A DNA stretch of 64,000 bases from Promethearchaeota archaeon (GCA_048938105.1 JBHLMN010000009.1:128001-192000), one strand, 5' to 3'. Counted from the first letter of the stretch, positions 4,469 through 47,288 are shown. Program-made: numbers and translations. The notes: generated by a model from the sequence alone, not told the origin.

Positions 4469-4590
4469 AACCGTTTTTCTATCCTTGAGGTTTGCCTTTT
4501 GGGAATACGATGAGTAATAAGAAGCCTTTTGATTTGTCTTTCATTTTTATATCAGATAAAATATTATATTTAGTATTGTAGAAAATCTTT

Positions 4591-4600
4591 TTTATATAAA
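4591..4600 (+). promoter_or_regulatory. TATA box (TTTATATAAA) upstream of the GYD pseudogene
   Basis: Purine-rich GAAAA then TTTATATAAA ending 17 nt before ATG 4618. The box is palindromic and could also serve the aminotransferase. Confidence 0.45.
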
Positions 4601-4617
4601 CAAGTAATACTCAATCT

Positions 4618-4863
4618 ATGCCTCTCTACATACTAGCTACTCGAATTGATTTTGATCAGAATGACTTAACAAAAAGGAAGGAATAGGGTAAAAAATGGCG
4701 AGAATTGGTCAAAGAAAAAGTTCTAGACATTAAGTGGATTGCACATTATACCATCTTAGGTCTATATGATTTTTTGGAAATTTTTGAGGCAAAAACAGAA
4801 ACAGCAAAGGTGTCTTTACTCTCACGAGCTGCAGGTAAAAGATGGTTGCTATTCTCTCCATAG
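4618..4863 (+). pseudogene. Degenerate duplicate of the GYD-domain gene (not in ORF track)
   Basis: Reads MPLYILATRIDFDQNDLTKRKE*GKKWRELVKEKVLDIKWIAHYTILGLYDFLEIFEAKTETAKVSLLSRAAG, colinear with 5473..5769. TAG at 4684-4686 replaces Gln, there is a 2-codon deletion, and homology is lost after about 4836. Confidence 0.9.
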
Positions 4864-5322
4864 AAAAAACATGAAAAGAGTAGACAACACACCACCAATT
4901 ATACCTCCCCAGAAAGCTCCCCCATACCAAAATTCCAGATCTTCAAGAATCATTTCAATGGCAACAATGAATCCACCCACAAGGCAAATTATTACTGTTA
5001 TCAAAGATAAAATGACTCCAATAAGGTAGAATTGATTTCTTGGAGGATTTTCTTGGTAAAGAAGTCCTAATAGAGAAATAATAGAGCAATAGAACAATCC
5101 TCCTGCTGCGAGAAAAAATAGAGGTAAAATAAAAATGGAATCAGGGAAGTTCTCTAAAGCTGATGGAAATCCAACCCAACCCCATCCGTACCCCATCCCC
5201 TAGACATACCAATACCAGCCAGCAAAATCATCAATTAGCACGAAAATCCCTCCTAATAGACTACAAATCAATCCCCCACCATATAGAATATTCTTATTTT
5301 CTAGTAATTTATTAAGGCTCAT
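4849..5322 (-). pseudogene. Four-TM membrane protein interrupted by an in-frame TAG
   Basis: From ATG 5322 the frame reads MSLNKLLENKNILYGGGLICSLLGGIFVLIDDFAGWYWYV*GMGYGWGWVGF. TAG is at 5202-5200; the track ORF 4849..5196 is only the downstream part. Confidence 0.7.
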
Positions 5323-5472
5323 ACTCTTTCTTATGTATATTATTCTTTAAAATTTTTCGAATCTCTCATTATCAATAATACAAAAACTTATTTTTCATCA
5401 TAAAAAGAGGAAAAATCGATCTAATTTCACTAAGGAGAAAACCTTTTTACAGATCTAAAAGAGGTTTAAATT

Positions 5473-5769
5473 ATGCCTAAATACATACTTGTCACAAAAT
5501 TTGATTTTGATGAAGATGATTTAGTAAAACGAAAGGAACAGGGGAAGAAATGGCTTGAAATGGTAAAGGAAAAAGTTCCAAGTATTAAATGGATCTCACA
5601 TTATGCCATTCTAGGCCCTTATGATTTCCTAGACATATTTGAAGCAAAAGATGAAACTGAAGCTGCGAAAGTTTCTTTACTTTCCCGTGCAGCAGGGGCA
5701 TCTTTTGCTGAAAGCTGGACAGCCATTCCATACTCTGAATTCCTTGACTTGCTTGAGGATTTGAAATAA
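5473..5769 (+). CDS. GYD-domain protein
   Basis: 98 aa with Y-x-x-LGPYD motif; GAGGT SD-like sequence upstream. Confidence 0.85.
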   Translation: MPKYILVTKFDFDEDDLVKRKEQGKKWLEMVKEKVPSIKWISHYAILGPYDFLDIFEAKDETEAAKVSLLSRAAGASFAESWTAIPYSEFLDLLEDLK

Positions 5770-5931
5770 ATTATCTTTCTTGTCTCTTTAGATTTGGTTA
5801 TAAACAAATCAAATATTATGCATTTAAGAGTCCAGTGAAGGATTAATCCAATAAACTTTCTTATAAAGAATTTTTTCTAATTTCTGAAATCCAAACTGAA
5901 TATTCATTGATTCTTATTATTGGGTTGAAAA

Positions 5932-6258
5932 GTGACAGAAATTCCAAAATGGGTTACAGAGTGGATAAATAAAGACAGATTAGTTCGAAATAAATATAAA
6001 TTGAGCCGAAAGTATATTCAACATTCCAAACGTATTCAATTTGTTGAAGGTAAGAAAAGAGAGAATGGAGAATGGATATCTTTTCACTTCGTTGTCAATT
6101 CTCCTAAATTTGGAAAATATAATGTTACTTTTAATGATGGTGAATATCATTGCAATTGCCCTTTTTTTAAACATCGGCTTATATGTAGTCATATTTTTGG
6201 AATATGTCAAAAAACGGCCCTTTGGCCAAAAAAAACGACAGTATTTTCAAATGAATAA
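5932..6258 (+). CDS. SWIM zinc-finger protein
   Basis: YNVTFNDGEYHCNCPFFKHRLICSH matches CxC-xn-CxH. Confidence 0.8.
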   Translation: MTEIPKWVTEWINKDRLVRNKYKLSRKYIQHSKRIQFVEGKKRENGEWISFHFVVNSPKFGKYNVTFNDGEYHCNCPFFKHRLICSHIFGICQKTALWPKKTTVFSNE

Positions 6259-6291
6259 AATTTCTGTCATCAAATATAAAGTGAAATTAGC

Positions 6292-7035
6292 TTGAAAATG
6301 AATGATTATCAATTAGCAGTGGAATGGATTTTAGAATCTAAATATACTGTTCTTTTTACTGGAGCAGGAGTTTCTGTTGAAAGTGGAATTCCGCCATTTC
6401 GGGGGGAAAATGGATTATGGAGTAAATATGATCCAACCTTTTTAATGACAAACTATTTTAAGAAACATCCAAAGGAATCTTGGAAATTAATAAACGAGAT
6501 ATTTTATAAATTTTTTAGTCGAGCAAAGCCTAATCAGGCACATTATATTATTACAGAGTTAGAAAAAAAAGGGTTAATTGATATAATAATTACTCAAAAT
6601 ATTGATAATCTTCATCAAAAAGCAGGAAGTAAGAATGTTATTGAATTTCATGGGACTTCAAGGACATTAACATGTATAAATTGTAAAAGACGTTTTGATA
6701 ATGATAAATTTTTAAATAAGTTACCACCACATTGCCCCAAATGTAATGGTCTATTAAAACCCGATTTCGTATTTTTTAATGAACCAATTCCATTGCAAGT
6801 TCACGAACTTTCAAATAAATGTGCTTTAATGTCCGATTTGTTTATATTAGTTGGGACTACTGGAGAAATAATGCCTGCTTCTTTAATTCCATATTTTGCA
6901 AGAGAAAAAGGAGCAAGAATTATTGAAATTAATATTATTCCTACTAAATATACTGATAGAATAGTAGATGTTTTTTTAGAAGGAAAAGCAACAGAAGTAT
7001 TCCTGAAATTAAAAGAATCTTTAGATGTTATTTAA
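6292..7035 (+). CDS. cobB: Sir2-family NAD-dependent protein deacylase
   Basis: TGAGVSVESGIPPFRG, TQNIDNLH, FHG, two CxxC, VGTTG. Confidence 0.93.
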   Translation: MKMNDYQLAVEWILESKYTVLFTGAGVSVESGIPPFRGENGLWSKYDPTFLMTNYFKKHPKESWKLINEIFYKFFSRAKPNQAHYIITELEKKGLIDIIITQNIDNLHQKAGSKNVIEFHGTSRTLTCINCKRRFDNDKFLNKLPPHCPKCNGLLKPDFVFFNEPIPLQVHELSNKCALMSDLFILVGTTGEIMPASLIPYFAREKGARIIEINIIPTKYTDRIVDVFLEGKATEVFLKLKESLDVI

Positions 7036-7097
7036 GAAATTAGAAACTCTAATAAGATTTAGATTAATAGACTTCAATGGTCGAATCTCTTCATAGC

Positions 7098-8015
7098 TCA
7101 TTTTGTTGTGTAAAGAAGCCCGAAAAGTATTCCTCCTCCTATACTAGTGAGGATTACAGTTTTCCACAGAAGAAGAGCTGCATCACGATTTTTTCTCCTT
7201 GCTAAATTACAAGCTAATACTAGTTCTATAGCTCCTAGTAAAAAAGGAATGAAATTCGGTATAAGGATACCCTCATTCATTAGTATCAGATTAACTATAG
7301 CAAATCCAACCACTCTAACACATATAATCGTAGAAGTGAGATAAGAAGCTTTATTCCACCCCAAAAGGACGGCTGTGGTCATTTCACCATTTTCTTGGTC
7401 TACTTCTAGATCTGTTAAAATGGTAGGTAAATGTATTCCTGTCACAAGTAGGATACAAAGAACAACGCCGTAGAATAATAACTGAGTGTCGACAATGGTG
7501 TCAAATCCTAATAATCCTATATAGAATGGAATAAAAACGCCAATTATTAGAACTGTGACAATTAAATCAAAATATGGCCTTGCTTTGAATCTCAAGGGAG
7601 GTACTGAATAACTAATAGATCCTCCTGCAGCTAAAAAATATGCCCCAAAAGCAAGCGGAAGTTTAGGAAAAGTTAATGAATTAGGGATAAAAAATATGTT
7701 TAAAGGAATAACTAAGAACCACAATATACCTACCCACAGATAAATTATTTTAGATGAAAGAAGATTTGAGGAAATAAGGGGATTCCGGAGAGAAAAACCA
7801 CGGGGATTTATTGTATCAGAATCTTTGTCAAAAAAACCATTAAGACTGAAATGACCGCAAGTAAATGCATATATGGATAACCAAGCCACTGAAAGCGAAG
7901 TTAAGGGTAATAGATATAAAAGACTTAACATGTAGGCCACACCAGCAAAAATAAACCCCCATTCGGGCCGGGAAAGAGTAAATAACTCCTGAATGATTCG
8001 TAAAGCTTTTTTCAA
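7098..8015 (-). CDS. UbiA-family prenyltransferase
   Basis: Multi-TM; LSRP, NGFFDKDSD..NP, YSVPPLRFK, DLEVD..G..T. Confidence 0.85.
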   Translation of the reverse strand: MKKALRIIQELFTLSRPEWGFIFAGVAYMLSLLYLLPLTSLSVAWLSIYAFTCGHFSLNGFFDKDSDTINPRGFSLRNPLISSNLLSSKIIYLWVGILWFLVIPLNIFFIPNSLTFPKLPLAFGAYFLAAGGSISYSVPPLRFKARPYFDLIVTVLIIGVFIPFYIGLLGFDTIVDTQLLFYGVVLCILLVTGIHLPTILTDLEVDQENGEMTTAVLLGWNKASYLTSTIICVRVVGFAIVNLILMNEGILIPNFIPFLLGAIELVLACNLARRKNRDAALLLWKTVILTSIGGGILFGLLYTTK

Positions 8016-8039
8016 AGATTAATGCACCATAAAGTAGCG

Positions 8040-8546
8040 TTAAAGTTGTTTCATCAATTGAAAACCTGAATCTGTTGTCTGAACTACCTTATAACCAAGT
8101 GTTTCATAAAGGTGTTTTGCTATCTTATTTTGTTTGAAAACATGAAGAACAATTTTGTTTAATCCTATTGCTTCTACTTCAGTTTCTAATAATTTCAAAG
8201 CTTGTTTTGCGAATCCTTTTCTTCTATGTTCTTCAAAAATGATAATATCAGCAATAAGCATAACCTGTTTCATAAATGATTCGGGAGACGGCCAAAACCA
8301 GATGTAACCTACTCTTTCTTTACTTCCCTTTTTTATAATAAAATTAAAAAATCGATCGGGAGTTTTAAATCCTTCGGGAAGTGATCTCATATAAGCAGTT
8401 TCTGCATGTTTCATCGCAGCTTCGTGGTTAAGGTTAAAAAGGTCGGAAAGCTCCTTAGCAACCTCTACTAACCGATGAGAATAGATCTCCTGAAAATCTC
8501 TCTTGGTCATTTTCTCAAAAAAGATCATATCAGATATTCTCTCCAA
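8040..8546 (-). CDS. GNAT-family N-acetyltransferase
   Basis: IFEEHRRKGFAK acetyl-CoA motif; LHVFKQNKIAKHLYETLGY. Confidence 0.9.
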   Translation of the reverse strand: MERISDMIFFEKMTKRDFQEIYSHRLVEVAKELSDLFNLNHEAAMKHAETAYMRSLPEGFKTPDRFFNFIIKKGSKERVGYIWFWPSPESFMKQVMLIADIIIFEEHRRKGFAKQALKLLETEVEAIGLNKIVLHVFKQNKIAKHLYETLGYKVVQTTDSGFQLMKQL

Positions 8547-8804
8547 TTCTTTCCATATGCTTTTTTAATAATATACTTCTTCTAGAATGTAACTAGGATT
8601 ATCATGATAAAGTAATAAAAAATAATTCCTGTTCTTTAAAGGTAAAATGGATTTTTATCTATATTCTACGAGCTAGCAAAACATTAATAAACTTATTTTT
8701 TGTTTCACACCAGTTGTCAACATCTATGATCAATTACCAACTCTACTACTACGTAAAATCGAAGAACCTAGCTAAAAAGGAATTTAAATGGAGGTAAAAC
8801 ATAT

Positions 8805-9251
8805 ATGGCTAAACCTGCTTTAAGATTAAAAGAAACTCCAGACGAATTAATCCTGAATATGGACGAAGAGCTATTTAACTACAAAAAAATGTCAATGCTT
8901 GCTATTGTAGTTGGAGTCTGTTTACTATGCATTTATTTGATAGGACTCATACCTATTGCTATTGGTGTTTATCGCATTAACCAATTAAATAATCGTCCAG
9001 AAGAAGTTGAATATGATATCAGAAGAAGAGCTGAACAAAAATCAGCAAGAAGAGGAAAAAGATTGACGATTATCTATAACCCTGAGGGACAACAGTTTTA
9101 TCGTCGTACACGGCGTCCGCGTCAACCACAGGCTCAATACACCCCTTATACAACACCTCAAGTTGAAACAAAATCCTCTTTCTGTCCTAATTGCGGAGCA
9201 GAGGTAAGTGAAGGTTTCAAGCACTGTATGAGCTGTGGAGCAAGGCTTTAA
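8805..9251 (+). CDS. Membrane-anchored protein with C-terminal zinc ribbon
   Basis: Hydrophobic hairpin around aa 31-56; FCPNCG..HCMSCGARL; GGAGGT SD upstream. Confidence 0.8.
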   Translation: MAKPALRLKETPDELILNMDEELFNYKKMSMLAIVVGVCLLCIYLIGLIPIAIGVYRINQLNNRPEEVEYDIRRRAEQKSARRGKRLTIIYNPEGQQFYRRTRRPRQPQAQYTPYTTPQVETKSSFCPNCGAEVSEGFKHCMSCGARL

Positions 9252-39704: not shown

Positions 39705-40874
39705 TTGGAACACAACCAAACTCAAGATTTATCTTCTTTTTATTCTGCATATCAACTCCTTGTAAGAACAGCCAAAAGAACCGTTAATTCTATAAATGAA
39801 AATCCACCTTGTCTGGTTGAATTCTGTAAAACACTTGAGGAAGCGAAAGAAAAGGATAAAAGAATTCATCTCGTTGGGATGGGCAGATCAGGGAAAGTAG
39901 GTATGTTACTGGGAGAATTATTGAAGAATGTTGGTTATAAAGTATCATATTTAGGCAAAAGTTTAGCTAAACCAGTCCGAATGGATGATGTGGTTATTGG
40001 TATCACTGGTTCAGGATGGACTAGCTTCACTATAAATACATTGCAAGAATCTATTAGTAGAGGCGCAAAAATATTAGTTTTTACTGGTGATCAATATTCT
40101 TTAGCTGCTAGATTAGCGGATTCGATAATTCTTATCCCTAGAGGTTATATAAAGGAAAAATTCGCACCTGTTTCTCATGCACCTTTGACACCTGTTTCTC
40201 ATGCTCCTTTAACACCATTGGGTACAGTTTTTGAAATGACTACAATGTGTATCGGAATTGGGGTAGTTTTAGGATTAAGAGACGAATCATCTGTTAAAGG
40301 ATTCAACGAAAATGTGAATGAAGTGTTAAGAGCAGCAGAAATGACATTAAACAATATTAAAAGAAGTGAAAAGCCTTTACAACAGTTTATCACACTCCTT
40401 GAAAGTTATTCTGGCCATTCAAAGAGGAAGCTATTTGTATTCGGTAGTGGATTCGATTCGATTATTGCTAGTATTTCTTCTATTCGATTAAGTCATTTAC
40501 GTATTAATTGTAAATCTAATTATGATTGGAGATTTAGAAGTAAAGAGGATCTATTAATTGGAATCTCGGGGTCAGGTGTGTCTACAAGTACTTTAGAACG
40601 TGTTGAGAGTGCCAAATCTGCGCATATGAGTATAGTCGGGTTAACATCCTTTCCAGAATCAAGATTAGCAAAAGAATCCGATATTGTCCTAGAAATTGAA
40701 GGCAGAACAGAGAAAATTAGTGCTGATTTACATCAGATTTCAAACCTTAGTTTTTTAATTCCATCATTTGAGTATTCTGCTGCGATAACCCTAGATGCAT
40801 GCGTTGCTCAATTAGCAATGGATTTAGGGATTAGTGAAACAGAAATGAAAGAAGAACACGCCAATATTGAATGA
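39705..40874 (+). CDS. hxlB: Double-SIS-domain 6-phospho-3-hexuloisomerase-like protein
   Basis: Two SIS units (GMGRSG..TGSGWT..PLGTVFE; GSG..ISGSG..FE); ends HANIE as in PHI enzymes; adjacent to HPS. Confidence 0.75.
   Translation: MEHNQTQDLSSFYSAYQLLVRTAKRTVNSINENPPCLVEFCKTLEEAKEKDKRIHLVGMGRSGKVGMLLGELLKNVGYKVSYLGKSLAKPVRMDDVVIGITGSGWTSFTINTLQESISRGAKILVFTGDQYSLAARLADSIILIPRGYIKEKFAPVSHAPLTPVSHAPLTPLGTVFEMTTMCIGIGVVLGLRDESSVKGFNENVNEVLRAAEMTLNNIKRSEKPLQQFITLLESYSGHSKRKLFVFGSGFDSIIASISSIRLSHLRINCKSNYDWRFRSKEDLLIGISGSGVSTSTLERVESAKSAHMSIVGLTSFPESRLAKESDIVLEIEGRTEKISADLHQISNLSFLIPSFEYSAAITLDACVAQLAMDLGISETEMKEEHANIE
40165..40212 (+). repeat. In-frame 24-bp tandem duplication (PVSHAPLT x2)
   Basis: cacctgtttctcatgcacctttga / cacctgtttctcatgctcctttaa, 22/24 identical. 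Confidence 0.95.
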
Positions 40875-40879
40875 GCGGA

Positions 40880-41161
40880 TTATCCACCAGCTAATACTGG
40901 AAAAAATGATACATCACAGTTCTTATCGAGAATAGTGTTTAATCCATCCAAAGCATGAATATTTCGGCCATCTATGAGTATTGTCAATCCTTTCTTTAAT
41001 TCATCATTCTCTATGAAAAAAGAGCTTCCTCTTTCCCCTTTTTTGGATTGAAATAGATCAAATACTTGCTGTAACCTTATTGGTTCTTCAACTGTAATAT
41101 TCTGAGTCTCACCTAACTCAGTCTGTAGAATAGCAAAGAATGAGAGCTTAATCGTGATCAT
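40880..41161 (-). CDS. moaD: MoaD/ThiS/SAMP ubiquitin-like protein
   Basis: 93 aa; FFA, ILIDGR, FPVLAGG C-terminus; TAATG overlap with the upstream gene. Confidence 0.9.
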   Translation of the reverse strand: MITIKLSFFAILQTELGETQNITVEEPIRLQQVFDLFQSKKGERGSSFFIENDELKKGLTILIDGRNIHALDGLNTILDKNCDVSFFPVLAGG

Positions 41162-43734
41162 TAGTCTTTTCTCTTCAAGATCACTTCTTTAAGATGTTGA
41201 GTGGCTTGTTGCGGATCTGCTGATCTAGTAATAGCAGAACCAACAATTAAGATATCTGCGCCATATTCAACCGCTTTAGGAATAGTTTCCGCCTTCAATC
41301 CGCCCGCTACTGCAATAGGAATCTTGATTGTTTCCCTTAATTTCTTTAATGTGGGAAATGGAATTTTATCAAAATCTGAACGCAATTGTTGGTCAATACC
41401 AATATGTAATCCAATGATATCGACTCCTAGTTTTTCTAAATGAATAGCTCGGTTGATAGGATCTTGGACGCCAATAAGATCTGCAAAGATTTTAACATCA
41501 AATTTCTTCCCTGCCCCAACCGCATCTTTAATAGTACTATCAGGAGCTATCCCTAAGATGCAAATAACATCAGCACCTGCTAACGCAGCCATCTCTGTTT
41601 CTAGGTAGCTAGCATCCATTGTTTTGAGGTCTGCAACAATTATTTTATGAGGAAAAAGCTCTCGTAATTTTCGTACAGATTCCATACCAGTAGCTTTAAT
41701 CAATGGAGTTCCTGCTTCAATCCAATCTACTCCTCCAAGTGCACTTTTTTGAGCAATTTTAAGCGCCTCATTGAGATCTCTGAGATCTAAAGCGATTTGT
41801 AGTTTTGTGCTGGTTTGAATAGGTTGAATGGATAGTTCTTTTAATTTACGCTCTGAAGGGACACCCAATTCATCCCAACCGCGGATGTGATAATATTCCT
41901 TGAGAAGATTGTGAATATTTACTTTGTGACCTTTTGCTGGCCCTTCAGGTAATGGTTCATTCAGAAATCTTGGGGAGAGATTATCATGGTCTCTTGTTAG
42001 CCCTTCTCGGATATTAAATAAGCGTTCTAAATTATAAATTCTTTCACCAATTCTTTTTAATTCTTTTTCATCAATATAAAAACCAGTAGCAGTAGTTAAA
42101 AGCTTCGCATAGATATCAACCTCACACTTTAATGTTGTGAATACCGCCAATGATGTGAATTTGCACCATTCAGCTGAATCTAGTACTGCAAATACATCTT
42201 GCATTTCTTTAACCAATTCTGCTTTTCCTTCCTCAGTAAAGGGATCAACAAAATGAGGTAAGCTTAAAACCTCTTGAATAACCGTATAACCTTTTAAATG
42301 AGTTCCCCCACTGTTTGAAGTGGCATAACTTAGTGCCATCCCTTTAATCCCTCTTGGATCATATGCAGGCATTTCAAGTCCTTTAACATGACAGGCAAAT
42401 GATTGTGATCCCTTCCCAATCCGTTTAGCGGCTTTTTGTACTCCATTCGCTAATAAATCACCCTCATCCTTCCTAATAGCAATATTTTCGATTAATGATA
42501 GTAATGCTTGACCATCTCCAAATGATATAGAGTTAGATATAATTCCTTTGTCACAACACTCCATGAACCATCCAATAGTATTCCCTGTAGAAATAGTATC
42601 TAATCCAAGTTGGTTACAAAGAGAATTGGCTTTAAAAATGGTTTCTAAATCGCTTATACCACAATTAGGACCTAATGCCCATAAAGATTCAAATTCAGGA
42701 CCGTGTGTTTCGATATCTTTATATTTCATTATACGACCGCAGGCAATAGGACACCCATGGCAAGGTTTTCTCTTTACTAAATATTCCTTGAGGGTTTCTC
42801 CTGCTATTTCACGCACATTCCCGAAAATGCCAGTACTGTAATTTCTTACAGGGAGAACCCCGTGTTTGTTGACAATATTAACTAGAATAGGCGTACCATA
42901 CAATCTCATCCCTGTTCCCGTCACTGGGTGACCCTTCAAGGTTTCTATGAATTTCATTTGGATCTTTTGAAACGCATATTCGTTGACAGGCATAACTTTA
43001 CCAGATCCATGAACAACAATAGCTTTGAGATTTTTTGAACCCCATACTGCTCCGATACCCCCTCTACCTGCGGTTCTTGTGTCATTGATAACACAAGCAA
43101 AATGTACTAAATTTTCTCCTGCTGGGCCTATCGCGGCAACAGAGTGATTTGTATGGATCTCTTTTAGTATTTTAATTGTTTCATTTATTGTTTTGCCCCA
43201 CAAACTCGAAGCATCTTGAATGGAAACGTTATCATCATCAACTAAGAGATATACAGGAGTTTTTGACGAATTCTCAATAATAATCCCATCATAACCAGCA
43301 CGTTTCAACTCAATTCCTAATCTACCACCGCAATGAGTGTCATTTAATGTTTTTTCAGTTAAAGGGCTTTTGAAAATCATACACCATCGAGACGAAGTTG
43401 GAGAAGTAGTTCCTGTCATTGGGCCCGTTAAGAGCACTAGTTTGTTATCGGGACTTAACGGATCTATTCCTGGTTTTAGTTCATCATAAAGGATTTTAAT
43501 ACCGTAACCTCTTCCTCCAAGGTATTTTTGCGCAGTATCGAGGTCTAATGGTTCCTTTTGGATTTTTTTTGTCATTATATTGATTCTTAAAATCTGTTTA
43601 GCATATGTCAGTGTTTTAACCCACCATTGATCTCCTATAATACTTACATAATTCGATAACAACGCCTCATGAAAATCTTGTAATGATTTATAAAAGAAAT
43701 TCACTCTTTCTAAAAAATTCAATAGCTCTCTCAT
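41161..43734 (-). CDS. Tungsten aldehyde:ferredoxin oxidoreductase fused to C-terminal 3-hexulose-6-phosphate synthase
   Basis: AOR: YLGGRG, KSPLT, AGRGGIGAVWGSKNLKA, CHGCPIAC, LGLDTIS, YDPRG. HPS: LQIALD, WIEAGTPLIK..G, ADLKTMD, HIGIDQQ, AVAGG, VGSAIT. True start is probably near 43612. Confidence 0.9.
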   Translation of the reverse strand: MRELLNFLERVNFFYKSLQDFHEALLSNYVSIIGDQWWVKTLTYAKQILRINIMTKKIQKEPLDLDTAQKYLGGRGYGIKILYDELKPGIDPLSPDNKLVLLTGPMTGTTSPTSSRWCMIFKSPLTEKTLNDTHCGGRLGIELKRAGYDGIIIENSSKTPVYLLVDDDNVSIQDASSLWGKTINETIKILKEIHTNHSVAAIGPAGENLVHFACVINDTRTAGRGGIGAVWGSKNLKAIVVHGSGKVMPVNEYAFQKIQMKFIETLKGHPVTGTGMRLYGTPILVNIVNKHGVLPVRNYSTGIFGNVREIAGETLKEYLVKRKPCHGCPIACGRIMKYKDIETHGPEFESLWALGPNCGISDLETIFKANSLCNQLGLDTISTGNTIGWFMECCDKGIISNSISFGDGQALLSLIENIAIRKDEGDLLANGVQKAAKRIGKGSQSFACHVKGLEMPAYDPRGIKGMALSYATSNSGGTHLKGYTVIQEVLSLPHFVDPFTEEGKAELVKEMQDVFAVLDSAEWCKFTSLAVFTTLKCEVDIYAKLLTTATGFYIDEKELKRIGERIYNLERLFNIREGLTRDHDNLSPRFLNEPLPEGPAKGHKVNIHNLLKEYYHIRGWDELGVPSERKLKELSIQPIQTSTKLQIALDLRDLNEALKIAQKSALGGVDWIEAGTPLIKATGMESVRKLRELFPHKIIVADLKTMDASYLETEMAALAGADVICILGIAPDSTIKDAVGAGKKFDVKIFADLIGVQDPINRAIHLEKLGVDIIGLHIGIDQQLRSDFDKIPFPTLKKLRETIKIPIAVAGGLKAETIPKAVEYGADILIVGSAITRSADPQQATQHLKEVILKRKD

Positions 43735-43853: not shown

Positions 43854-44966
43854 TTGTACGCGGATTATAATGAAAAATTAGCGAAATTAATAGCTCAATA
43901 CGCTGTAAATGTCCAACCAAACGATCTTGTAATGATCCAAGCTCCAATTAATGCAGAAAATCTTGTCAGGGAAGTTTATAGAGAGGTTATACAAGCAGGA
44001 GGTCACATTCTAAGGATGAAGCTTTCATTCGATAGTCAAGATGAAATGATGTATAAATTAGCTACTGATGAACAACTGACATACGTTGACGACCTTGAGG
44101 TAGAATACTGGAAAAAAGCAGACGTCCTGATAGCTATTCACTCTGATTACAATACTCGAGCTTTAACAAATGTCCCCGCAGAGAAAAAAGTAATGGTGAG
44201 ACAAGCTCGAGAGGAGATTACTAAAATATATCTTGAAAGAGCCGCAAAGAAGGAATTGAGATGGAATTTAAGTCCATACCCTTGTGATGCATTTTCTCAA
44301 GAAGCAAATATGGGGAGACTAGAATACTTAGAATTCGTATATAAAGCACTGAATCTGCATCAAAGTGACTCTATAGAGTTTTGGAAACGTATTGAAGCAA
44401 ATCAAGAAGACATTGTTAATATTTTAGACAAAGGTAAAGAATTCCGGATTATAGGAGAAGATACCGATTTAACATTAGCGATTGAGAATCGTAAGTGGAA
44501 AAATTGTTGTGGCCATGAGAATCTTCCTGATGGGGAGGTCTTTACAGGACCACATGAAGATGGGGTAAATGGAAACATAAGATTCACATATCCTGGAATA
44601 TATGAGGGACAAGAGGTTGAGGACATCTTTTTATCCTTCAAAGAGGGTAAAGTTGTGGACTTTGACGCTGCAAAGGGAAAAGATCTCTTAAAGAAGATGC
44701 TTACCATCCCAAATGCGAATATTCTCGGAGAGCTGGCCGTAGGAACTAATTTTGGTATAACTAAATTTACTAAGAATATGCTTTTTGATGAAAAAATGGG
44801 TGGAACCATTCACCTTGCCTTAGGCTCTGGTTACCCTGAAACTGGTTCAAAAAACCAATCATCTATTCATTGGGATATACTAAAAGACATGAAAGGTTCT
44901 GAAGCAAAAATTCTTCTTGATAGTGAGGTTATCTATCAAGCAGGAAAGTGGTTAATTCCTAAATAA
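43854..44966 (+). CDS. M29 aminopeptidase (AmpS/aminopeptidase T)
   Basis: NLPDGEVFTGP, GELAVG, LFDEKMGGTIHLALG, SSIHWD. Confidence 0.93.
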   Translation: MYADYNEKLAKLIAQYAVNVQPNDLVMIQAPINAENLVREVYREVIQAGGHILRMKLSFDSQDEMMYKLATDEQLTYVDDLEVEYWKKADVLIAIHSDYNTRALTNVPAEKKVMVRQAREEITKIYLERAAKKELRWNLSPYPCDAFSQEANMGRLEYLEFVYKALNLHQSDSIEFWKRIEANQEDIVNILDKGKEFRIIGEDTDLTLAIENRKWKNCCGHENLPDGEVFTGPHEDGVNGNIRFTYPGIYEGQEVEDIFLSFKEGKVVDFDAAKGKDLLKKMLTIPNANILGELAVGTNFGITKFTKNMLFDEKMGGTIHLALGSGYPETGSKNQSSIHWDILKDMKGSEAKILLDSEVIYQAGKWLIPK

Positions 44967-44972
44967 ATCTAA

Positions 44973-47288
44973 TTATGATAGATGAATAACCTCACCACTT
45001 TGAAGAGATTTGAGAGCTGCACAAGCCACTCGAAGGGCCAATATTCCATCTTGAATGGGTATTGGACTTGGGTTATCATTCAATATAGCCTTAGCGAAAG
45101 CACTAACTTGTTCAACAAAAAATGGGAGTTGATCAATTTCTTCAAAAGTAGGTTCAGATCCATCCAATTCTGTATTCTTGATTGAGGGTTGCTTGGAGGG
45201 ATCAATTCTGATTGTACCATCTTCACCATAAATTATCATTCCAGTATTGCTTCCTACCTGATCTGTTAGATCTGGTTCAGACCAAGATGCTTCAATAGTA
45301 ATAAGGACTCCAGATTTTGACCGAAGACTAATTTGCACTGTATCCCAGGTTTTTATTTCGGGATAAACTCTATTTGAGCCAATTGCATAAACAGTTGTTA
45401 TTGGATCAGCAGGCCCTAGAAACCATTGCACTAAATCAATATCATGGATTGCTAGATCGACAGCTATTCCTCCACTTTTTGTTTCATCCCAAAACCACTT
45501 AGAAGAGGGAGGACCACGACCCCGACGATGAGCATGAATAGAAACTATGGGGCCAAGCTCGCCTTTGTCAATTACCTTTTTTGCTGCAGAATAATGGGAA
45601 ATGAACCGACAAATCATTGCAACCATTAATTTAACATTATTGTCTCGTAATATTCCTGAAATTTCCTCTAATTCATCCGGATGTAACAAGATGGGTTTTT
45701 CACATAAGATATGTTTCCCTGCCTTTGCTGCAGCAATAATATATTTCTTATGTACAAAGGTTGGAACACAAATCGATACTGCTCTCAATTCAGGGTCTTG
45801 AAGGGCTTCTAGATAGTTTTCATAGATGTTAATCACTCCAAAGAATAAAGCTGCTCCTTGAAGGGCTAATGGGTTTCTGGTAGCTATTGAATGTAATTCT
45901 GTCCAAGAACAAGCTGAGTATGCTGCAGCATGTATTTGGCCAATTCCCCCTAATCCAATTATACCGACTTTTAAGGGATTCATGACCTTTGGAACATCTT
46001 TAATGAGTTCCTGAATTTTTGGGGTTGTACCTGTAGAAATCATGGTTCCAATGATTCTACTCTCAATTTCTAGATCAATATTCAGAATTATCTCCATCTC
46101 TTGAAGAAATTTCGCTGCCACTAATGATAATTCAATGTAGGATAATTGATGCCAATTGGGAAGCCCAATGATGTTTTCAGCTATTTTATCAGTATTAGGA
46201 CAGTTTGGTTCGTTGTAGACTGCTTCCTCCTCCAAAAAAGGACATGTAAACGGACATTTACGTTCCCCGTATCCCTTTTGTTCTTGGAAAAGAGGAGAAG
46301 TATAGAGACCAGCGGGATAAATCAATTGAGTGATCTGAAAGTCACGGTTCAAATGGTCAGCTAATTCTTTCCCAGTCATTCCAACAATTGAAGGATCAAT
46401 TTGGATTGCATACGCATGAAAAACATGTTTTCCATACTCTGGTACTTGAGGTAATCTTACTCCTGGGATGTCTTTTAGTAGTGAATTTAAGTATAGAGAG
46501 TTTTTAATCCGCCCTTCGTTCATTTTTTCAAGTTTTTTTAACTGTTCTATCCCTATAGCTGCTTGTATCGTTGTCATTCGATAATTAAATCCTAATCTCT
46601 CATATTTATACCAAGAAGGCTCCCCATGATGTCTAACCAATCGACATTGTTTTGCAAAATCGTCATCATCAGTAATTATAATACCACCCTCTCCTGTCAT
46701 CATATTCTTTGATTCAAAGAAACTGAAACATCCCGCTTTTCCAAGACTCCCCACTTTTTTTCCTTTGTATTCAGCCCCATGAGCCTGACATGCATCTTCA
46801 ATTACTATAAGATTATGTTGTTGAGCAATTTTAATAATGGGATCCATATCTGCAGGATGACCAAAAAGATGTACAGGAATAATAGCCTTGGTTCGATCTG
46901 TTATTTTATTTAGCAAATCAGTAGGATCCATACAAAAGGAAGTTGGATCAATATCTACAAACACAGGAATAGCATTTTGATGTAACACAGCAGTTGCTGT
47001 GGCAACGAAGGTATATGGAGGGATTAAAACCTCATCACCAGCCCCTACTCCAGCAGCAGCTAAAGACGCATGTAGTGCAGCTGTTCCAGAACTAACAGCT
47101 ATAGCTTGCCTAATATCCATGTAGCTGGCGAAATCAGCTTCAAATTCTTCAATTTCAGTACCACTCATGAATGTCAATCGTTTATTGCGCATTACTCTTT
47201 TTACAGCAAGAATTTCTTCCCGTTCTACTTTACGATCCATTGGAAATAAATCGTGTGGTTTAATTTTACGAGTCATAAACGCACTCAA
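44973..47288 (-). CDS. DegT/DnrJ sugar aminotransferase fused to Gfo/Idh/MocA NAD(P) oxidoreductase
   Basis: SSGTAALH, EDACQAHG, SFFESKNMMTGEGG; then VGIIGLGGIG, LCEKP, GGIAVDLAIHDID. Confidence 0.9.
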   Translation of the reverse strand: MSAFMTRKIKPHDLFPMDRKVEREEILAVKRVMRNKRLTFMSGTEIEEFEADFASYMDIRQAIAVSSGTAALHASLAAAGVGAGDEVLIPPYTFVATATAVLHQNAIPVFVDIDPTSFCMDPTDLLNKITDRTKAIIPVHLFGHPADMDPIIKIAQQHNLIVIEDACQAHGAEYKGKKVGSLGKAGCFSFFESKNMMTGEGGIIITDDDDFAKQCRLVRHHGEPSWYKYERLGFNYRMTTIQAAIGIEQLKKLEKMNEGRIKNSLYLNSLLKDIPGVRLPQVPEYGKHVFHAYAIQIDPSIVGMTGKELADHLNRDFQITQLIYPAGLYTSPLFQEQKGYGERKCPFTCPFLEEEAVYNEPNCPNTDKIAENIIGLPNWHQLSYIELSLVAAKFLQEMEIILNIDLEIESRIIGTMISTGTTPKIQELIKDVPKVMNPLKVGIIGLGGIGQIHAAAYSACSWTELHSIATRNPLALQGAALFFGVINIYENYLEALQDPELRAVSICVPTFVHKKYIIAAAKAGKHILCEKPILLHPDELEEISGILRDNNVKLMVAMICRFISHYSAAKKVIDKGELGPIVSIHAHRRGRGPPSSKWFWDETKSGGIAVDLAIHDIDLVQWFLGPADPITTVYAIGSNRVYPEIKTWDTVQISLRSKSGVLITIEASWSEPDLTDQVGSNTGMIIYGEDGTIRIDPSKQPSIKNTELDGSEPTFEEIDQLPFFVEQVSAFAKAILNDNPSPIPIQDGILALRVACAALKSLQSGEVIHLS

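Follow-up and report, generated by a model that had tools for sequence, protein, structure and literature searches.

Archaea that run the ribulose monophosphate (RuMP) pathway in reverse release one molecule of toxic formaldehyde for every pentose they make, and in those without tetrahydromethanopterin (H4MPT) and Fae the fate of this formaldehyde has been left open or loosely given to 'an AOR', that is, an aldehyde ferredoxin oxidoreductase. The closest described systems are the fusion of 3-hexulose-6-phosphate synthase (hereafter HPS) with PHI in Thermococcales, the Fae-HPS fusion of methanogens, and formaldehyde ferredoxin oxidoreductase (FOR), a free-standing homotetramer whose Km for formaldehyde is poor. 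Here we describe a gene that joins an AOR and an HPS in one frame. It lies in a 64,000-nucleotide stretch of DNA from a Promethearchaeota archaeon (GCA_048938105.1, JBHLMN010000009.1:128001-192000), hereafter called the window, which corresponds to positions 128001-192000 of contig C53 in genome G000, an assembly of 5.85 Mb in 65 contigs that is 99% complete.

No description of an AOR-HPS fusion was found in full-text literature searches, and as far as such searches reach the fusion is, as the original prediction expected, apparently undescribed so far. The two activities have been reported as separate enzymes side by side, for example in work on Brockarchaeota (PMC8065059) and on Atabeyarchaeia (PMC11291895). 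To judge from its sequence, the protein adds AOR as a new fusion partner for HPS and would solve the problem addressed by Fae-HPS with different chemistry. It probably shows how cells of this kind dispose of their reverse-RuMP formaldehyde: a covalent AOR-HPS would be a concrete answer to where the formaldehyde goes, and for each pentose made, two electrons of low potential would be regained as well. The central carbon metabolism of this lineage is of wide interest because the Heimdall/Hodarchaeales are held to be the lineage closest to eukaryotes, and an enzyme that couples formaldehyde/formate redox chemistry to the RuMP aldolase would be a candidate part for synthetic one-carbon assimilation.

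The fusion gene and its distribution in archaea

The fusion gene occupies positions 41161..43734 on the minus strand as a single uninterrupted frame of 857 codons, to which all residue numbers below refer; its extent is based on the open frame, the domain matches, N-terminal comparison and homologues of the same architecture. From the N-terminus, it encodes an AFOR_N domain, the pterin-binding beta-grasp pair (residues 47-243, 43006..43596, minus strand; Pfam PF02730, E 2e-77, profile positions 2-198 of 199), and AFOR_C domains 2 and 3 (residues 259-636, 41827..42960, minus strand; Pfam PF01314, E 1.8e-141, profile positions 3-385 of 385). These are followed by the linker QPIQTST (residues 637-643, 41806..41826, minus strand) and an HPS barrel (residues 644-857, 41164..41805, minus strand). 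The barrel is identified by structure alignments, by invariant columns and by NCBIfam TIGR03128 (RuMP_HxlA), whose 200-bit cut-off it exceeds with 214 bits (218 bits in a whole-genome search); the Pfam OMPdecase/HPS (HUMPS) match covers residues 643-846 with an E value of 5.6e-34. The open frame, the Pfam matches and the TIGR03128 score above cut-off thus bear out the original prediction of an uninterrupted frame with a complete AOR and a complete HPS. The linker that it gave as SIQPIQTST is indeed present, but the first two of those residues belong to the AOR.

The AFOR_N domain aligns to the AOR structure 1aor starting at residue 8, and the N-terminus of the relatives, M-x-Y-A, aligns with codon 42 of the frame. 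Because this codon is CTG in G000, the start probably lies upstream of it, either at ATG 43734 or at a TTG at codon 25, and the protein would then probably carry an N-terminal extension of 17-41 residues. The frame is open for 41 codons upstream of the CTG (43612-43734, minus strand), up to ATG 43734, and a TATA-like TTATATT lies about 20 nt upstream of this ATG.

A homologue search with the junction region (residues 560-857) as the query yielded over 100 protein clusters at 90% identity that have the architecture AFOR_N + AFOR_C + OMPdecase. Their proteins are about 805-860 residues long, and their source labels include Hodarchaeales, Heimdallarchaeota, Thorarchaeota, Thermoplasmata, Methanomethylicaceae, Nezhaarchaeales and Thermoprotei. 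In public records the fused proteins are named '3-hexulose-6-phosphate synthase', 'orotidine 5'-phosphate decarboxylase' or 'aldehyde ferredoxin oxidoreductase'. Of 399 Asgard species genomes searched, 13 besides G000 have matches spanning the junction; where the contig permits, these lie in frames of about 815-860 amino acids. Two of the genomes with the junction are closed (G067, CP070695.1, and G133). The three-domain architecture, for which a search had been proposed alongside the original prediction, is thus present both in these clusters and in these genomes. The fusion-bearing Asgard groups are ten further members of g1, the genus-level group to which G000 itself belongs, G013, G133-G135 and G309; in other Asgard genomes HPS lies in frames of about 440-470 residues or of about 230.

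A phylogeny of 94 AOR domains was reconstructed with FastTree, using Shimodaira-Hasegawa-like support values. It places all 27 fused AOR sequences in one clade with a support of 99, together with two partial fused proteins and one short protein of uncertain status (P0149). Seven of the 12 other AOR paralogues of G000 could be placed in the tree, and none of these seven falls inside the fused clade. When the AOR domain alone was compared with a library at 50% identity, the top two matches were fused proteins (676 and 658 bits), and the best unfused protein scored 563 bits. The linker has seven residues in 86 of 90 full-length fused proteins and eight in the other four, while its sequence differs among lineages (QPIQTST, KPLYEGP, IREPRWP). 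Specific to the fused clade is a six-residue insertion right behind the fourth cysteine ligand (about residues 527-532), in which Phe532 is invariant; the corresponding positions are gapped in 105-114 of 148 unfused AORs. These sequence comparisons indicate that the fusion is genuine and old, and that it likely arose once.

An AlphaFold2 model of the whole protein (816 residues), built from the 90-protein alignment, has a mean pLDDT of 94 and a pTM of 0.92, and the linker is ordered in it. The model is consistent with the AOR and HPS halves being held in a fixed mutual orientation. When the two domains were predicted as separate chains the complex score was 0.01, and the method returned no answer.

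Two kinds of aberrant copies were observed. Damaged fusion genes occur in two g1 genomes, G070 and G065; in the latter (C1:1040000-1054000, locus L063, 3978-10195) the gene is split within the HPS barrel by 6.2 kb encoding aIF2-gamma, a P-type ATPase, a PIN protein and a 604-amino-acid open reading frame (ORF) without a family. A mobile element was considered for this interruption and rejected on its gene content, leaving a rearrangement or a misassembly. In metagenomic fused homologues of about 990 amino acids (P0037-P0042), the AOR and the complete HPS are separated by a second, partial HPS barrel that corresponds to roughly the first 135 profile positions. As this additional segment is HPS, a triple AOR-PHI-HPS fusion was rejected for them.

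The two halves, their proposed reaction and its alternatives

Both the AOR and the HPS half appear to be under selection as enzymes and look catalytically competent. The [4Fe-4S] ligands of the AOR half are Cys325, Cys328, Cys332 and Cys524 (CxxCxxxC and a fourth cysteine), and alignment to 1aor makes Glu349 and His479 the equivalents of Glu313 and His448 of the Pyrococcus furiosus AOR, which flank the metal site in 1aor. All of these residues, as well as the pterin-binding Asp379 and Asp519, are invariant in 90 of 90 aligned full-length fused proteins. Compared with solved structures, the AOR half matches 1aor end to end with 542 bits, the FOR structure 1b25 with 360 bits and WOR5 with 230 bits, so that FOR is not its closest characterised relative. 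By sequence, it sits with AOR sensu stricto within the family, as a clade of its own nearby, and not with FOR. Placing the domain among FOR, AOR and WOR5 had been suggested with the original prediction: membership in the AOR family and a separate clade emerged from this, but not a FOR.

The catalytic set of the HPS half comprises Asp650, Glu673, Asp702-x-Lys704-x-x-Asp707 and His777, which is the set of the orotidine 5'-monophosphate decarboxylase suprafamily according to alignment with the solved HPS structures 9lj9_B, 3ajx and 3f4w. The strand-1 Asp, the strand-2 Glu, the strand-3 DxKxxD, the strand-6 His and the GG phosphate loop are invariant among fused homologues (44-90 sequences). The barrel scores 217 bits against residues 3-203 of 9lj9_B and 144 bits against 3ajx, and its sequence identifies it as a bona fide HPS, nearest to the HPS-PHI type. 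The NCBIfam model for Fae-HPS (NF009833, PRK13307) matches only the HPS part of the fusion, at positions 171-377, with 147 bits against a cut-off of 274; because the Fae domain is absent, the fusion is no member of the Fae-HPS family.

Whole-genome searches of G000 found HPS (TIGR03128) in the fused copy only, and found no Fae, no transketolase and no glucose-6-phosphate dehydrogenase; RpiA is present. Since the sole HPS is fused and neither transketolase nor glucose-6-phosphate dehydrogenase was found, reverse RuMP would be the pentose-making route of this genome, and is the only one recognisable in its sequence. Earlier genome analyses likewise deduce reverse RuMP for most Heimdallarchaeia, transketolase being missing (bioRxiv 10.1101/385732).

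We propose, with a probability of roughly two in three, that the fusion is a bifunctional reverse-RuMP enzyme, which would take part in converting fructose 6-phosphate to ribulose 5-phosphate and formaldehyde, and would oxidise the formaldehyde to formate with the reduction of ferredoxin. In this scheme PHI, supplied either by the tandem-SIS protein encoded next to the fusion or by a canonical PHI, would turn fructose 6-phosphate into D-arabino-3-hexulose 6-phosphate, which the C-terminal HPS barrel would split into ribulose 5-phosphate and formaldehyde. The N-terminal AOR-type domain, with a pterin metal cofactor and one [4Fe-4S] cluster, would then oxidise formaldehyde to formate and pass two electrons to ferredoxin, and RpiA would convert ribulose 5-phosphate to ribose 5-phosphate. 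The net reaction would be fructose 6-phosphate + H2O + 2 Fd(ox) -> ribulose 5-phosphate + formate + 2 Fd(red). The fusion would keep free formaldehyde low and pull the unfavourable cleavage forward, with the AOR domain in the role that Fae has in the Fae-HPS of H4MPT-using archaea. The route would then match the oxidative branch of the pentose-phosphate pathway, but be linked to ferredoxin. Formaldehyde is put forward as the substrate because no other HPS product is open to an AOR, and coupled oxidation is proposed because every pentose made would free one formaldehyde at the fusion's own HPS site. AOR sensu stricto enzymes do oxidise formaldehyde, although other substrates suit them better; the rate for the Aromatoleum AOR is 4.1 U/mg (PMC6365974). 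The sequences show the architecture and how it is conserved, that the catalytic residues are intact, and the pathway setting; what the AOR domain acts on, which way flux runs, whether there is channelling and which metal is bound are our inferences.

The original prediction, in which the AOR takes the place of Fae and oxidises the formaldehyde released by HPS, is supported by the pathway context and the invariant active sites, although it is not a FOR-type enzyme that is fused. Several observations weigh against the proposed reaction. Because the AOR half is nearest to broad-range AOR, its sequence gives no specific pointer to formaldehyde. Sinks or exporters for formate, namely formyltetrahydrofolate synthetase, molybdopterin-type formate dehydrogenase, PurP and FocA, were not found in G000. 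The only formate-related enzyme found there is a glycyl-radical enzyme resembling pyruvate formate-lyase (G000:C53:201302-203251, some 9 kb past the end of the window, 760 bits); that formate is excreted to a syntrophic partner would be a guess, if a reasonable one. Finally, G000 has 13 AOR-family genes with intact motifs (the fusion and 12 paralogues), and neither the MoaA C-terminal domain nor MoaC, MoaE, MoeA or WtpA was found in it. Molybdopterin-oxidoreductase genes (PF00384) were not found in G000 either. Within the genus, MoaE (PF02391) was found neither in G000 nor in 18 of 20 members, and the set of MoaA, MoaB, MoaE and MoeA is present only in G070 and G071. The tungsten that the original prediction gave to the AOR is a putative metal. 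That 13 enzymes are dead seems less likely than that the pterin is taken up from a partner or supplied by an unrecognised route, and 13 AOR genes without a recognisable pterin pathway bear on the partner dependence of such archaea.

A more far-reaching version of the proposal is possible, and we offer it tentatively. The fusion would be a true channelling enzyme, defining a so far undescribed, ferredoxin-linked 'oxidative hexulose-phosphate shunt' that operates in many anaerobic archaea without H4MPT and replaces the oxidative pentose-phosphate branch, and Hodarchaeales would depend on a pterin cofactor that they cannot make by the known pathway. If this is true, the cofactor would be taken up from partners, or made by a new route involving the AOR-linked MoaD-like proteins.

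It is unlikely that the domains are linked only for co-expression or stability, with the AOR serving as a general aldehyde scavenger or as an oxidoreductase of amino-acid-derived aldehydes. Such a role would suit an AOR half that resembles broad-range AOR more than FOR, a genome with 12 further AOR paralogues, and neighbouring genes for peptidases (M29, C69) and a hydrolase. It does not account well for a single fused clade across several archaeal phyla that keeps a linker of 7-8 residues and an insertion beside the cofactor site, while no other AOR clade carries the fusion; and formaldehyde is the single HPS product open to an AOR.

Slightly less probable still is operation in the assimilatory direction, which the original prediction had allowed for as the module run the other way. 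AOR-family enzymes are reversible in principle. The AOR would reduce formate with low-potential ferredoxin and the HPS would condense the formaldehyde with ribulose 5-phosphate, for formate fixation or for bringing pentoses salvaged from nucleosides into glycolysis by way of fructose 6-phosphate. The fused HPS would draw the unfavourable formate reduction onward, the enzyme resembling pyruvate formate-lyase could yield formate, RpiA is present, and nucleoside and AMP phosphorylase-like genes lie beside a paralogue of the tandem-SIS gene. However, neither transketolase nor any other means of regenerating ribulose 5-phosphate was found in G000, so that the RuMP cycle cannot run and this reading is weak here. 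Reduction of formate would also require very low potentials, and with a sole HPS and no other detectable pentose synthesis the anabolic direction is needed anyway.

That MoaA, MoaC, MoaE, MoeA and WtpA were found neither in G000 nor in 18 of the 20 members of the genus could also mean that the AOR domain lacks its cofactor in G000 and acts only as a scaffold or regulator of HPS. We consider this improbable, as the cofactor-binding and catalytic residues are all invariant, the genus included, and thirteen AOR genes are retained; and since G070 and G071 have the pathway, uptake or an unrecognised route is likelier than a cofactor-less AOR. Two genes joined by read-through, or a chimera made in assembly, the latter named with the original prediction as a possible refutation, can be excluded because independent assemblies share the junction, among them the two closed genomes and the clusters from several sources. 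The bifunctional reverse-RuMP enzyme is therefore the reading that we carry forward.

Neighbouring genes

The gene directly following the fusion (40880..41161, minus strand) encodes a ThiS/MoaD-like beta-grasp protein of 93 amino acids. Its start overlaps the stop of the fusion in the sequence TAATG, an overlap that had been predicted and that the ORF coordinates confirm. The protein passes the Pfam ThiS cut-off (34 bits against 22.5) and ends in ...LAGG, thus carrying a C-terminal Gly-Gly, but it stays below the cut-offs for moaD_arch (34 against 49.5 bits) and SAMP1 (37.7 against 60 bits). A ThiS-like gene directly follows the fusion in genus g1, G013, G133 and G135, and lies divergently upstream of it in Nezhaarchaeota and Methanomethylicaceae; it is absent beside one fusion homologue, and none was detected at the fusion in G309.

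Five of the seven ThiS/MoaD-like ORFs in G000, the window copy included, lie within about 3 kb of AOR-family genes. The other four of these (C14:212545-212868, C42:124578-124883, C6:234125-234436 and C2:59479-59736) have unfused AOR paralogues as neighbours, and the remaining two, on C9 and C59, are not beside AOR paralogues. The window protein is most likely a general AOR-associated factor outside the catalytic module. With five of seven copies adjoining AOR-family genes and the MoaD and SAMP cut-offs missed, the idea of a MoaD-like gene as a specific part of the module has to be given up. Because MoaE, MoaA, MoaC and MoeA were not found in G000, a role in molybdopterin synthase is doubtful and the label 'MoaD' itself is weakened.

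Convergent with the ThiS/MoaD-like gene is a gene for a PHI-like protein of 389 amino acids with two SIS stretches (39705..40874, plus strand), and the two stops are 5 bp apart. The protein resembles PHI in both halves. As a whole it scores 131 bits against the PHI model TIGR03127, whose cut-off is 160; taken singly, the halves reach 76 and 58 bits. Solved structures of the PHI family that match the C-terminal half are 1vim, YckF and the PHI part of 9lj9_B, while the N-terminal half matches MJ1247. The protein has the end motif H-A-x-[LI]-E, as in the aligned chains of 1vim and of the PHI part of 9lj9_B. The predicted double-SIS PHI neighbour is thus PHI-like and placed as described, but it remains below the PHI cut-off and a canonical PHI is encoded elsewhere: an ORF of 184 residues at C53:102716-103243, 25 kb upstream of the window and 65 kb from the fusion locus, scores 164-165 bits against TIGR03127. 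A PfkB-family sugar kinase gene begins 5 nt after this canonical PHI (locus L069, G000:C53:96000-110000, 6693-8221). The paralogous tandem-SIS protein of G000, 47% identical, is encoded on another contig (locus L068, G000:C48:5000-22000, 4523-8838), where it follows two genes resembling AMP/thymidine phosphorylases, which suggests a role in nucleoside-pentose metabolism for this paralogue.

The link of the tandem-SIS gene to HPS is strong all the same: in the genus g1 loci examined, it adjoins an HPS gene, whether the latter is fused or not. Two gene orders occur at the fusion in this genus, with the tandem-SIS gene either convergent or co-directional upstream (G071, G074). Four sister species without the fusion (G063, G058, G062 and G064; loci L064-L067) have the tandem-SIS orthologue convergent with a stand-alone HPS-like gene of 247-249 amino acids, which scores 117 bits against TIGR03128 and is below its cut-off. 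In these loci a 374-amino-acid ORF lies upstream of and overlaps the stand-alone HPS-like gene, and a second radical-SAM ORF stands beside the tandem-SIS gene. The 374-amino-acid ORF was considered as a formaldehyde dehydrogenase and rejected, as it has a weak radical-SAM match instead.

In G073 (C6, locus L055, 1178-5771) the order is AOR-HPS, ThiS-like gene, a stand-alone HPS-like gene of the Fae-HPS type (221 amino acids) and a convergent tandem-SIS gene. From its gene content, this locus appears to be caught half-way, with the fusion taking the place of a resident HPS. The simplest history would be that an AOR-HPS/ThiS cassette landed by a resident HPS/tandem-SIS pair and then displaced the resident HPS, and such an in-place replacement would support the functional equivalence of the fused HPS domain.

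Two further genes lie beside or near the fusion locus in the window, namely an M29 peptidase (43854-44966, plus strand) and a fusion of a DegT aminotransferase with Gfo/Idh/MocA (44973-47288, minus strand). G067, G072 and G075 share this order, and G073 and G074 share part of it.

Comparison with known systems

The small gene beside the AOR has a described parallel in the aor operon of Aromatoleum aromaticum, where the MoaD-like aorD and aorE adjoin AOR genes and are not in the purified enzyme (PMC6365974). The arrangement is the same here, a small MoaD-like gene beside an AOR gene, and it is unlike a classical molybdopterin synthase setting in that the partner genes MoaE, MoaA, MoaC and MoeA were not found in G000.

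With 1aor and related AORs (9g7j, 9mqx and the Aromatoleum structure 8c0z) the fusion shares the CxxCxxxC...C ligands, the equivalents of Glu313 and His448, and the pterin motifs. It differs from the P. furiosus AOR in forming a clade of its own, in the six-residue insertion and in the C-terminal HPS. The FOR of P. furiosus and T. litoralis (1b25) is a member of the same family, and its ferredoxin-linked oxidation of formaldehyde to formate is the reaction that we propose for the fusion, but FOR is a more distant relative of the fusion than AOR is (360 against 542 bits).

The HPS-PHI fusion of Thermococcales (NF041755; 9lj9) resembles the protein in the type of its HPS domain and in its pathway role, from fructose 6-phosphate to ribulose 5-phosphate. 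In contrast to HPS-PHI, PHI is unfused here, with a tandem-SIS neighbour and a canonical PHI elsewhere, and HPS-PHI enzymes have no built-in formaldehyde disposal. It is the Fae-HPS of methanogens and other H4MPT-using archaea that shares this feature, as both proteins combine a C-terminal HPS with a formaldehyde-consuming domain, actual or proposed, which would remove the formaldehyde at once in reverse RuMP. The partner in the present fusion is an AOR-family redox enzyme of about 600 residues instead of the 160-residue Fae, and formaldehyde would be oxidised to formate with ferredoxin instead of being condensed with H4MPT.

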